From Candidatus Hermodarchaeota archaeon (GTDB taxonomy: Archaea > Asgardarchaeota > Hermodarchaeia > Hermodarchaeales > Hermodarchaeaceae): DNA of 40,277 nucleotides. Location: NCBI GenBank assembly GCA_016839805.1, contig JAEOTO010000041.1:1-40277 (forward strand). The letters run 5' to 3'. Position numbers and translations under genes: made by a program. Each line of letters opens with the position of its first letter. Within the stretch, counting starts at the first letter, position 1. The notes beneath the pieces are model-generated. The model was not told the origin of the DNA. It saw only the letters and a program-made list of their open reading frames with translations, and made no database searches. Below, one piece after another: positions 34,809-40,277 of this stretch.

Positions 34809-35297
34809 ATGTCCGAGGAAAGACTTTGTATTTTCATTGATGGCGGAAACGTCTTCCACGCCGCCAATACCCTAAAGATCCACGTTGACTTAGCCAAACT
34901 CGTCACCGCCTTAACAGCTAACCGAACACTCATTCGAGCCTACTATTACGACGCTACCTCGAACACCCCTGCACAACAACGCTTCTTTGATAAACTACGC
35001 CACCTAGGATTCGCCGTGAAGACCCTCCCACTCCGCCAATACCAAGGAACCCCTTTTGAGAAAGGCATCGACGTCATGCTCGTCACCGACATGCTCACAC
35101 TCGCCCACACCAACACCTACGACACCGCCCTCCTCGTCTCCGGCGACAAAGACTTCACCTACACCCTCCAAAAACTCAAAACCCTCGGCAAAACCATCGA
35201 AGTCGCCGCCTTCACCCACGCCCTCGCCACCGAACTCCAACACGCCGCAGACAACACCATCCTCCTCGACCACCTGATACCCAAAATCAAGTTGTAA
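34809..35297 (+). CDS. NYN domain (LabA/DUF88, PIN-fold) protein
   Basis: IFIDGGN, EKGIDVML..D, LVSGDKDF. Confidence 0.92.
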   Translation: MSEERLCIFIDGGNVFHAANTLKIHVDLAKLVTALTANRTLIRAYYYDATSNTPAQQRFFDKLRHLGFAVKTLPLRQYQGTPFEKGIDVMLVTDMLTLAHTNTYDTALLVSGDKDFTYTLQKLKTLGKTIEVAAFTHALATELQHAADNTILLDHLIPKIKL

Positions 35298-35339
35298 AAA
35301 AAGCCTAAAAAAGAAAAAGAGAGGGAGGAGCAACCTCCC
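35296..35339 (-). terminator. Hairpin plus U-tract after actin 3'-end copy 4
   Basis: GGGAGG-TTGCT-CCTCCC followed by a T-rich tract. Confidence 0.7.
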
Positions 35340-35355
35340 GTTAAGTGAAGACCGT

Positions 35356-35409
35356 TTAGAAGCACCGATGGGCCACGCCAGCGCCCTGCTCCACATATTC
35401 CTTTTTTGT
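35356..35409 (-). repeat. Displaced actin 3'-end, copy 4 (TKKEYVEQGAGVAHRCF*)
   Basis: Direct repeat of actin exon 3; 8 synonymous codon changes, plus M>V and I>A. Confidence 0.9.
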
Positions 35410-35468
35410 TGAAACGCGTTTGATTCATAAGGTAGTATGGAATAGTAATGTGAATAGAGGTTGGGTTT

Positions 35469-35729
35469 ATGTCCGAACAAGTGATGAACACACCAGTTGG
35501 AAAGGTCACCAACTATTACGCAAAAATCAATGTCGCCGTCATCGAATTATCCGCCCCATTGAAGAAAGGTGATGAAATCGCCATCAAGGGCGCAACCACA
35601 GAGTTCACCCAAACCGTGGAATCCATGCAAATCGAACGCGAAGACATTGAATCCGCACAATCAGGCCAAGCCATCGGATTAAAAGTCAAAGAACGGGTGC
35701 GGATAGGCGATACCGTCTATCGCATTTAA
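35469..35729 (+). CDS. Translation-elongation-factor-like small beta-barrel protein
   Basis: VGKVTNYYAKINVA...LKKGDEI.IKG.TT.F.Q.VESMQIE...VRIGD.VY. Confidence 0.85.
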   Translation: MSEQVMNTPVGKVTNYYAKINVAVIELSAPLKKGDEIAIKGATTEFTQTVESMQIEREDIESAQSGQAIGLKVKERVRIGDTVYRI

Positions 35730-35805
35730 TGGATACACAGAAGACCTTTGATTACTACTTATCGTCCTACCTCGCTGTCGTTACCAAATCTGCAAAGCAT
35801 GGGGG

Positions 35806-36228
35806 TTAGAGGGTTAACCCTCCAATCTGGCGCAAAAAGTTTGCCACATCGATGAGCTGCCAAAACTCCGCGAGTTTCTCTTCTTCGAACCGGTACAAGT
35901 TGAAGCTACTGAACTTGATTTTCTTTCCAGTAGGGGCGATGCCCTGGAACTCACCTTGATGCGTCCCAGTAACGGTAATACGCATCGCCGCGCGATCCTC
36001 TGTGGCGAAAAGATCTTCAATTGTCACATGAACGTCAGGGAGCGCTTTCAGCACTAGTTGCATAAAATCACCAACTTCCTCACGTCCCTTCACATCCACG
36101 AAAGCACCTGCCAAATCGTGCCGAACGAAACCAGATGTAACCAACCGAGGAACCACTGTTAAATCCCGATCATTGAACGCCTGAATAATTCTTCTAATAA
36201 CCGCCATATTCTCTTCTGCTGTCACCAA
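35806..36228 (-). CDS. SnoaL-like ester cyclase (NTF2-like)
   Basis: ALPDVHVTIED, GTHQGEFQGIAPTGKKI. Confidence 0.9.
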   Translation of the reverse strand: MVTAEENMAVIRRIIQAFNDRDLTVVPRLVTSGFVRHDLAGAFVDVKGREEVGDFMQLVLKALPDVHVTIEDLFATEDRAAMRITVTGTHQGEFQGIAPTGKKIKFSSFNLYRFEEEKLAEFWQLIDVANFLRQIGGLTL

Positions 36229-36324
36229 ACAACCTCCAACCCCATATCACCCAACCAATAACATATCAGCCTACCGATTAATCCCCTCACACGCAAATTA
36301 GAATCAAAGTTCTTGAAATTAGTG

Positions 36325-36369
36325 AAAAAGAAACCAAAAAAGAGAGAAAATGGGAGGACAAGCCTCCCA
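36325..36369 (-). terminator. Hairpin plus U-tract after actin 3'-end copy 3
   Basis: TGGGAGG-CTTGT-CCTCCCA then a T-rich tract. Confidence 0.7.
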
Positions 36370-38128: not shown

Positions 38129-38245
38129 CCTCACACCTCCCAATGAAATAACCTATACCTTCAAAGAGTAAAAATCCTATGGGTGACCCCTATACCTCGA
38201 ACGCTGTCAGTCGGGAAACCGCTACCGCTTAACCCAGCAAAACCC

Positions 38246-38277
38246 AAAAAAAAGAGAAAAGAGGAGGCACAGCCTCC
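38246..38277 (-). terminator. Hairpin plus U-tract after actin 3'-end copy 2
   Basis: GGAGGC-TGT-GCCTCC then a T-rich tract. Confidence 0.7.
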
Positions 38278-38294
38278 CAATAGGTGAAGACCGT

Positions 38295-38355
38295 TTAGAA
38301 GCACCGGTGAATAACGCCAGCGCCTTGCTCCATATATTCTTTCTTCGTCACTCAC
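38295..38355 (-). repeat. Displaced actin 3'-end, copy 2 ([18 protein letters not shown])
   Basis: 6 third-position differences from exon 3 (5 synonymous, 1 TGG>TGA). Confidence 0.93.
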
Positions 38356-38649
38356 AATACGAGGGTTGTGTGGTTTTAATTGCCTATTCCTGAAAACCAT
38401 AACGCATAAAAACCAACTAAAACCGGACCCCTTGAGCGAAGAAAAAAACTCAGTGAGACTAAACCTTTGATTCATGATGGCTCAGATTGTATACAGGTTG
38501 ACGAAACAACTACTCAGACTACATATGTTTGTCTGGACACGAACGAGTTATTTTTAGGTTTTCCAATTGTAGGAAAAGTCGATCGCACGAAGGCATTGAA
38601 TATTGCTCGTTGGTTACGCCCAACACAAAATGGGAGACAAACAGTAATC

Positions 38650-39693
38650 ATGAAATCCGCTCCAAGTAAGTTGATTCAGCAGCTAGGAGCAAATAACTAT
38701 GGAAATCAATGGTTTGTTAATTCTGTTAAATTAAATCGGTTCCTGAAAACGAAATTCTTGTTCAAAACGCAGTCAAAGTTAGAATTTCCACTTACGCGAT
38801 ATATCATTGAGTGGATTAAAGCAGGCGTAGATGTAAAGCGAATAGTGTTGCTCCTACTCTTAACAGAAGGTGGTGGGAAAAAATATCGAAACATCTTCTT
38901 CTATAATCGAAACCAATTGTATCACGAGCTTTTAGTCGATTGTATATGGCAACTCACAGAAGAGCTTCCAACGAGCTATATGATACCTAGTAAATACATT
39001 ACTAAAACTGGTGAAATCCGGAACACACCTGATACTGAATATTGGCATAAGAAAATCGTCCAACTAGTCTTTGAACTCAGTCCTTCACTCAAATGTAAGC
39101 CTGCTTTACTTCAAACAAAAACAGCTTATCAAAGCGAAGCCCAACCAAATGGTGAATACCTCCTAAAAGGTACTAAACTAGAAAAGGAGTTAATGGCCCT
39201 CCTTATTATTGGAACAGAAGGATACATCACACCCTTTAATAACCAAAATGGGTTTTGTTCAGCAAATATTGGGTTTAGATGTAGTCACCCAACACTCCTC
39301 CTCCAATTTATCAGAATTTTCAGAGACATCAACATCCACATGACTCTCATCAAGGATAAGAAGAGCTTTTCAAAGCTTGGTGGAGCCCACAATTCTTCTT
39401 ATGATACTGGAAAAAAGATTCTAGAACTAATTAGGAGACACGGAGATCTTCTCGGAACAATTCACGGGAACTCAATCTTTCATGAAGGAGTAAAAAAATC
39501 TAAACTTCTCATCGCTAGTTTAGATTTCTACATAAAACAGAAATCAGGTGCACTTAATCGGAGCATTTCTAGAAAACAGTTACACGAACTTCTTAACCAA
39601 CGAATTGAATCGCAAGCATTAATGCCGATACAGGAAATACTCAAGCACTTAGATCAGAACCCTCGTATCCACCGTAATATCAGAAGCCAATAA
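38650..39693 (+). CDS. Putative free-standing LAGLIDADG homing endonuclease (double motif)
   Basis: Two LAGLIDADG-like helices, VLLLLLTEGGG...IFFYNRNQLYHELL and MALLIIGTEGYI...IGFRCSHPTLLLQFIRIF; AT-rich; ORF open from 38467, ATG 38650 preferred. Confidence 0.7.
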   Translation: MKSAPSKLIQQLGANNYGNQWFVNSVKLNRFLKTKFLFKTQSKLEFPLTRYIIEWIKAGVDVKRIVLLLLLTEGGGKKYRNIFFYNRNQLYHELLVDCIWQLTEELPTSYMIPSKYITKTGEIRNTPDTEYWHKKIVQLVFELSPSLKCKPALLQTKTAYQSEAQPNGEYLLKGTKLEKELMALLIIGTEGYITPFNNQNGFCSANIGFRCSHPTLLLQFIRIFRDINIHMTLIKDKKSFSKLGGAHNSSYDTGKKILELIRRHGDLLGTIHGNSIFHEGVKKSKLLIASLDFYIKQKSGALNRSISRKQLHELLNQRIESQALMPIQEILKHLDQNPRIHRNIRSQ

Positions 39694-39735
39694 AAAAGAG
39701 AAAGGCTGGGTGCGTTCCATTAAGGAAGCACACCC
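39692..39735 (-). terminator. Terminator-like hairpin plus U-tract of the functional actin gene
   Basis: Imperfect GGGTGTGCTTCC-TTAAT-GGAACGCACCC stem followed by CTTTCTCTTTTTT. Confidence 0.55.
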
Positions 39736-39763
39736 GTTCCTTATAGAGGGGTTCACGCAGCGG

Positions 39764-40277
39764 TTAGAAGCACCGGTGAATAACGCCAGCACCCTGCTCC
39801 ATGTACTCTTTCTTGGTCACCCACTTGCGCTGCAACTAGGTCTTCTAATTCCATATACGCTGAAAGGTTTTGAGTGACGCAAGAATTGAGCCCCCGATCC
39901 ACACCGAATACATGCGCTTTCACCCGCATACCATCAAGGTAGGCATCTGGTGGCGCAACAATCTTAACTTCGACGTTTTCGGGGATTTGTTCGATGATTT
40001 CTTTGCGGAGGCGTTCTTTGAGTCCGGGGAACATGGTGGTGCCGCCGGAGAGGACGATGTTGGCGTAGAGGTCGCGTCGGAGGTCGACGTCGCATTTGCG
40101 GACGGCTTCGACGATGGCGTCGTCGAGGGGTTGGGCTTCGACGCCGATGGCGCCTGGATTGAACAAGACTTCGGGGCCTTGGAATCGTTCGGCGCCGACG
40201 GTGAGGGTGGAGCCGTCGGGGAGCATGTATTTCTTTTCCATGCCGGCGACTTTTTCGGCGAGTTTAGTTTCTTTCTC
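39764..40277 (-). CDS. Asgard actin (Lokiactin-type), 5'-partial, spliced: exons 40277-39947, 39918-39855, 39824-39764
   Basis: YMLPDG...GAERF..PEVLFNP...CDVDLRRDLYANIVLSGGTTMFPG...KIVAPP; after removing two BHB introns it continues [41 protein letters not shown]. Confidence 0.95.
39825..39854 (-). other. 30-nt BHB intron 2 in actin mRNA
   Basis: UUCA/UGGG exon helix, GCGU/GCGC central helix, AUA and AAG bulges, AAUUAG/CUAGUU hairpin; splicing gives CGU AU|G UGG; contains an in-frame UAG. Confidence 0.88.
39919..39946 (-). other. 28-nt BHB intron 1 in actin mRNA
   Basis: UGCGC/GCGCA exon helix, CACC/GGUG central helix, AGA and AAA 3-nt bulges, internal hairpin; splicing gives CCA G|AG CGC. 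Confidence 0.9.

Follow-up and report, generated by a model that had tools for sequence, protein, structure and literature searches.

The window analysed here is a stretch of 40,277 nucleotides (nt), comprising the whole of contig C32 in the 2.3-Mb genome (G000) of a Hermodarchaeota (Asgard) archaeon. At one end of it lies an actin gene that is followed by an array of displaced copies of its own 3' end, by a free-standing LAGLIDADG endonuclease gene, and by further genes carried as cargo between the copies (Table 1). The actins nearest to that of the window were found in Hermodarchaeota metagenome-assembled genomes (MAGs). The overlap between the actin sequences of C32 and C9 extends over 219 nt at 94.5% identity, with 12 mismatches that are all synonymous and leave the protein identical; because of those mismatches, the sample appears to have held two actin alleles, of which C9 represents a synonymous variant.

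Two short inserts interrupt the gene, each of which displays a bulge-helix-bulge (BHB) fold, and their predicted splicing restores the reading frame and a C-terminus identical to that of relatives; two genes for the splicing endonuclease (PF01974) are present in the genome. L104-L107 have both introns at the same sites, with altered stems, and in every case a homolog of the 408-aa open reading frame (ORF) of the window lies alongside. Exon 2, which separates them, is 73% identical to the corresponding tract of intron-less alleles, which are themselves 86% identical to one another (minimum 77%), and on that basis is probably a foreign tract that was co-converted.

Table 1. Features of the actin locus and its array in the window
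Feature	Position	Strand	Remarks
Actin exon 1, 3' part	39947..40277	-	PF00022; runs off contig end, 5' part on C9
BHB intron 1, 28 nt	39919..39946	-	Canonical BHB fold; removal restores PPERMYS
Actin exon 2	39855..39918	-	Probably co-converted foreign tract
BHB intron 2, 30 nt	39825..39854	-	At upstream limit of displaced copies
Live actin terminal exon	39764..39824	-	Sequence comparison
Head terminator-like hairpin and U-tract	39696..39735	-	Type similar to L104-L107, unlike displaced copies
Free-standing double-LAGLIDADG endonuclease, clade B, 408 aa (predicted)	38467..39693	+	Fold search; acidic residues E134, E251 kept
Conserved end of endonuclease cassette, 58 nt	38367..38424	+	78-93% identical in 9 loci, clades A and B
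Displaced copy 1: actin 3' end and terminator	38245..38356	-	Carries TGG>TGA
Cargo unit 1: Lrp/AsnC-type double-HTH regulator	37142..38143	-	Cassette also deep in G014 array
Cargo unit 1: 149-aa protein, no known family	36479..36928	-	Junction same in G014
Displaced copy 2: actin 3' end and terminator	36335..36445	-	Changes all synonymous
Cargo unit 2: SnoaL-like protein	35806..36228	-	PF07366, E 2e-34
Cargo unit 2: 86-aa beta-barrel protein	35469..35729	+	Sub-threshold EF-Tu D2 / U32 C-terminal matches
Displaced copy 3: actin 3' end and terminator	35306..35409	-	Repeat comparison
Cargo unit 3: NYN-domain protein	34809..35297	+	PF01936; fourth unit
Decayed fifth copy	34702..34731	-	nhmmer E 8e-4, genome-wide; junction same in L111

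The last 54-62 nt of the actin coding sequence (approximately 20 codons) recur as direct repeats at 38295-38356, 36386-36445 and 35356-35409, in agreement with a first-pass annotation of this DNA that had listed three such repeats. A hidden Markov model of the repeat recovered these copies from the genome with E-values of 1e-19 to 1e-31, and added only the decayed fifth copy, which the annotation had missed, and one dispersed copy on C38. The annotation had further described four units of repeat and terminator. A GGAGG/CCTCC hairpin with a U-tract is indeed present in all three displaced copies (38263-38277, 36352-36368 and 35323-35339), but the hairpin of the live gene (39708-39735) is of a different type, so that the four units are not alike. 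Two additional claims held: homology begins near the 3' splice site of intron 2 (at -62, -60 and -54 from the stop codon, the splice site being at -61), and the differences from the live end are overwhelmingly synonymous (19 codons with synonymous changes, against 2 missense and 1 nonsense), from which the displaced copies appear to have evolved as working actin coding sequence. The locus C38:2591-2708, off the array contig, holds a lone decayed actin end with its terminator, between two sugar-metabolism-like genes.

The cargo previously listed for the spacers was largely recovered, namely a LAGLIDADG fold, an Lrp/AsnC-type regulator with a 149-aa protein of no known family, and a SnoaL-like protein; the supposed EF-like protein yielded only sub-threshold matches, and the NYN unit had gone unlisted. 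The 86-aa beta-barrel gene recurs together with its -54/-51 junction in L111, G003 and G014, and the NYN unit is 92% identical across its whole length in L111, with both ends matching.

The endonuclease at the array head

The endonuclease gene is convergent with actin and lies 70 nt from its stop codon. Pfam returned no match for either clade of actin-linked endonuclease, and an Atlas search gave a weak lead, so that the LAGLIDADG assignment was settled by fold search alone: the predicted structure of the window ORF (AlphaFold pLDDT 89.8) matched I-Tsp061I, bI3 and I-OnuI with a Foldseek probability of 1.0, and the protein is accordingly predicted to fold as a monomeric LAGLIDADG endonuclease. 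The two LAGLIDADG helices of the alpha-beta-beta-alpha-beta-beta-alpha fold end in acidic residues (E134 and E251), and aspartate or glutamate occupies these positions in nearly all of the 22 rows of the alignment.

A second clade (A), 20-27% identical to that of the window (B), occupies the equivalent slot in G004, G005 (with one stop), G008, G012, G014, L108 and L111, where it is convergent with an intron-less actin; clade B was always accompanied by both BHB introns. Together with G000, these account for eight of the nine same-lineage alleles with assembled downstream DNA in which a LAGLIDADG gene is the first gene behind actin, while the actin allele of a sister genus (G016) has neither the endonuclease gene nor an array. 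A scan of metagenomes added three close alleles only. The 58-nt element at the other end of the cassette is a probable promoter or operator. Behind distal copies in G004, G008, L108 and G005 lies a stretch of 140-240 nt in which the terminator and the 3' end of the endonuclease gene are preserved, and because of these stumps such copies appear to be former heads, or partial copies of heads. The LAGLIDADG gene, previously regarded as cargo, is instead the conserved head of the array and likely its driver.

Several related sequences were encountered elsewhere. An endonuclease stump is convergent with etfA at G000:C10:2143-2550 and at L249, where no displaced copy was seen. At L246:8480-15071 (in G004), an endonuclease gene has a 5' fragment of uvrB on one side and the complete uvrB gene on the other, in a 5'-end version of the duplication. 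Beyond the left end of the window, G000:C42:268-3188 (L209) carries two LAGLIDADG-motif ORFs, one of which weakly matches the 58-nt element, behind the gene that exits the window at 1-1613 and that has a Cys-Ala-rich tail.

Arrays in relatives and at other genes

Comparison of the region downstream of actin across related MAGs, a check proposed in the first-pass annotation, established that repeat number and cassette content vary within the genus. Actin 3'-end copies were found in 10 of 14 other genus members, with about 8-20 copies each in G008, G012, G014, L108 and L111, and 68 units had a median length of 1.0 kb (quartiles 0.6-1.6, maximum 3.9). A given cargo retains a constant junction between genomes and differs in its depth within the array: in G014 the first cassette of the window occupies a deep position, and the window's EF-like and NYN units are present again in L111. 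Unit order agreed between genomes in 20 comparisons and conflicted in 2 (one of them in a mixed cluster), with one clean reversal, and strong reshuffling is therefore not supported. Neither the identity of copies (rho -0.19, p 0.25) nor their boundaries (rho 0.31, p 0.05) indicated a clear rise of decay with array rank, leaving strictly front-only growth unsupported by these statistics.

The live end of a copy's own genome was its best match for only 9 of 38 copies, the best matches being live actin ends of other genomes; copies were 70-77% identical to their own head as opposed to 80-90% to other heads. These origins were assigned by nearest head in place of a tree, over about 80 usable nt, and the small share of own-genome matches indicates that the actin ends came from several lineages. 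In the endonuclease-free allele L117, the cassette located right behind actin lies deeper in four other arrays. Both observations bear out the earlier proposal that incoming DNA brings a replacement terminal exon, by which the previous one is displaced.

Among 56 distinct junctions, 18 contained the full core, starting at -60 to -63 from the stop codon, and the others were truncated as far as -21; none extended convincingly upstream of that ceiling, with which intron 2 (at -61) coincides. Junctions were fixed per cassette and differed from one another by up to 40 nt, and no shared arm was found on the cargo side. The ceiling and the one-sided trimming would be easier to reconcile with a break that is resected and end-joined than with crossover by a recombinase.

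Thorarchaeia possess actin copies reaching -62/-68, decayed copies being present even in a chromosome-level record (L068). In five Thorarchaeia genomes (L218-L222), actin is interrupted by a separate short intron of BHB type whose site is 4 nt upstream of that of intron 2 in the window, and four of these five have no displaced copy in the DNA examined; the relaxed BHB motifs of Thorarchaeia and of intron 1 in L104 were read by eye, having been missed by the script. In Thorarchaeia G057, actin is directly followed by a paralog (L226:2332-3453) that is full-length and diverged but nearly identical at its C-terminus. On a Loki-like contig (L126:2602-5900), three actin copies of 113-126 nt were found without a head endonuclease, the longest starting at -126, which is the site of intron 1.

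Two further arrays in G000 involve hydrogenase genes. Four displaced ends lie behind a group-4 [NiFe] hydrogenase gene (G000:C3:485-5600, L197), where a convergent 692-aa LAGLIDADG-type gene comes first and where most genus members have the array; and five displaced mvhA ends, starting from a CLSC motif, lie at G000:C46:54619-64133 (L210), again with a convergent LAGLIDADG-type gene first. These LAGLIDADG-type genes belong to a family unrelated in sequence to the actin-linked endonuclease. Copies in both arrays start at a DPCxSC motif, those of the group-4 hydrogenase having a 5' ceiling at -128 to -131 with variable truncation, and neither head contains an intron. The last ~80 codons of the mvhA head are AT-rich (third-position GC content 0.10-0.27, versus about 0.4), and its protein differs from its copies. 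Single displaced ends were found behind related genes in G016 and G008.

Origin of the arrays

From the observed anatomy, variability, foreign ends, fold and stumps we infer a cleavage event, a repair pathway and a donor route, and consider it moderately probable that the array is a record of repeated homing-endonuclease breaks, at each of which a donor allele supplied a new 3' end together with its terminator and the DNA behind it. The free-standing LAGLIDADG enzyme would cut a sensitive actin allele at the MW codons, which are conserved and lie about 61 nt ahead of the stop. The upstream end would then be repaired by homologous recombination from another allele, either on incoming DNA or on another chromosome copy, which would contribute a replacement terminal exon and the terminator belonging to it, along with 0.5-4 kb of following DNA; the downstream end, after losing 0-40 nt, would be joined either with no homology or by way of an earlier repeat. 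With each round, actin would be restored and the old end, its terminator and its neighbours would move one slot back. The endonuclease would come to lie first where homing is complete, stump-bearing or cargo-only units would result from copying that was aborted or from subsequent decay, and recombination between repeats could add, drop and sometimes reorder units. In G000, the clade-B enzyme would travel with two BHB introns that shield the allele.

Several points weigh against this scheme. Clade-A alleles are intron-less and carry no sequence signature of immunity; around the site, the sequence of L116, an allele without the endonuclease, is almost exactly that of G004/G008; and five apparent boundaries fall at -67/-68, which were read as chance extensions. 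Thorarchaeia arrays lack a head endonuclease, no homolog of the family was found in 87 Thorarchaeia genomes, and nine first-slot or large ORFs scanned there proved to be ordinary cargo. Homing alone does not explain how new cargo first joins a terminator, and the enzyme could be merely the commonest passenger of a hotspot. A general capture process, anchored by homology at a conserved, highly expressed gene, joined on its other side illegitimately or as a circle, and with the endonuclease as a frequent passenger, therefore stays alive on account of the missing clade-A immunity and the enzyme-less Thorarchaeia arrays, and it would also accommodate the Loki-like array, the endonuclease-free hydrogenase arrays of G008 and G013, and the variable boundaries. 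Such a process would not predict a hard upstream ceiling coinciding with intron sites, and a scan of 2,893 ORF ends across the genome, together with a self-comparison, located 3'-end arrays exclusively where the gene has a LAGLIDADG neighbour; it is rather unlikely. A further variant, to which we give a low probability, is that the LAGLIDADG gene has been domesticated in the manner of yeast HO and, under regulation, now and then breaks its own intron-less actin allele, which would serve as an integrase-free platform for gene capture, with separate platforms at actin and at hydrogenase genes; domestication would explain both the clade-A alleles without immunity and the continued first position of the gene and its 58-nt element.

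The remaining explanations fare less well. The first-pass annotation had likened the locus to tandem islands at att sites, and gene-end replacement is typical of such sites in coding genes (PMC7563491), the units (0.5-4 kb) have the size of decayed streptococcal islands, and the genus has a second, non-coding cassette repeat. Tyrosine recombinases were nevertheless absent from every array contig (serine recombinases and transposases were not searched), as had been noted of the window, the genomes containing only an XerA-like gene and a few others away from the arrays; a tyrosine-integrase search found none in 68 units; and the junctions, scattered from -63 to -21 and inherited per cassette without a cargo-side arm, contain no constant att core. 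Site-specific integration by a trans-acting recombinase, in which decayed islands would accrete in tandem, is hence improbable. The span of a unit from 3' splice site to U-tract and its variable 5' truncation would suit the retro-insertion of a 3' exon freed by splicing and extending to the terminator, but that idea is very improbable and largely refuted because the sequences remain homologous for 140-440 nt beyond the terminator, within endonuclease or cargo DNA; introns are moreover missing from most alleles and from both hydrogenase heads, and copies cluster behind their parent gene. Mis-assembly of strain variants might be suspected from a contig that ends inside actin and overlaps C9 with synonymous mismatches, and from the many contigs of relatives that also break there. 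A collapse artefact is unlikely, since the longest exact match between copies is 27 nt and since two independent assemblies (G008 and L109) have ten repeats alike at identical spacing; with junctions common to several genomes and decayed copies in the chromosome-level record, mis-assembly as a whole is extremely improbable.

Comparison with known systems

In fungal mitochondria, mobile ORFs (mORFs) bring a foreign C-terminus that displaces the native one, and such carried C-termini have been described for atp6 of Allomyces macrogynus, for atp6, atp9, cox2 and nad3 of Glomus, for cox2 of Phlebia and for rps3 of Ophiostoma (PMC3630166, PMC4019555). The actin array is similar in that a free-standing homing endonuclease lies behind a replacement foreign 3' end, with the native end displaced downstream (here, as copy 1); that the live end is foreign is indicated by its different terminator, by the greater resemblance of copies to other heads, and by the diverged exon 2. 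Unlike mORFs, the array resides on an archaeal chromosome; its enzyme is convergent, with a probable promoter of its own, and not co-transcribed; the displaced ends, each with a terminator, number up to 10 or more; the spacers contain host accessory genes; and one clade is accompanied by BHB mRNA introns.

The free-standing endonucleases of T-even phage are known for intronless, collaborative and trans homing (PMC2988022) and for SegB-driven amplification (PMC13096335). The present enzymes likewise lie outside any intron, are partnered with an ORF-less intron at the target in a manner that matches collaborative homing (PMC2988022), and are associated with co-conversion of flanking sequence, but the phage enzymes are of the GIY-YIG or HNH type and lack a stack of displaced gene ends with cargo. 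The integrative and conjugative, integrative and mobilizable, and cis-mobilizable elements (ICEs, IMEs and CIMEs) of Streptococcus accrete in tandem at the 3' ends of fda, rpsI, rpmG and rplL (PMC7563491); they too form tandem cargo units at the ends of protein-coding genes, many of them without an integrase, and differ in requiring a tyrosine integrase and constant att cores and in comprising 2-3 elements. Integrons and clusters of attC sites lacking integron-integrases (CALINs) are enriched in Asgardarchaeota (PMC9668308) and share with the arrays a layout that varies between genomes, in which units of one or two genes are separated by co-oriented repeats and a single enzyme gene comes first. 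In the arrays, by contrast, the repeat is actin coding sequence with a terminator hairpin, the head gene is a nuclease in place of an IntI tyrosine recombinase, and unit order is mostly conserved. The introns resemble the short BHB intron in the cbf5 pre-mRNA of Crenarchaeota (PMC2738675) in interrupting a coding gene, and differ in that two occur in actin and are tied to an endonuclease clade, with a third site in Thorarchaeia.

A literature search of incomplete coverage found no paper on such actin 3'-end arrays. If the homing mechanism proposed above is correct, gene-end replacement by homing endonucleases would extend from fungal mitochondria to an archaeal chromosome, and would prove capable of assembling accessory genes into cassette arrays with no integrase involved. 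The gene affected, Asgard actin, serves as a marker in work on eukaryote origins; its 3' end appears to be exchanged between lineages, has three sites at which tRNA-type mRNA introns occur, and is a frequent point of breakage in assemblies. The association of two ORF-less BHB introns with a single endonuclease clade would additionally offer a testable route for the spread of such introns in coding genes.

Two other repeat families were observed in the genome: a ~105-nt non-coding repeat with a palindromic end, of which about 29 copies lie between single genes (on C1, C19, C20, C39, C42, C38 and C25; L212-L215), and a further short repeat family on C16/C37.

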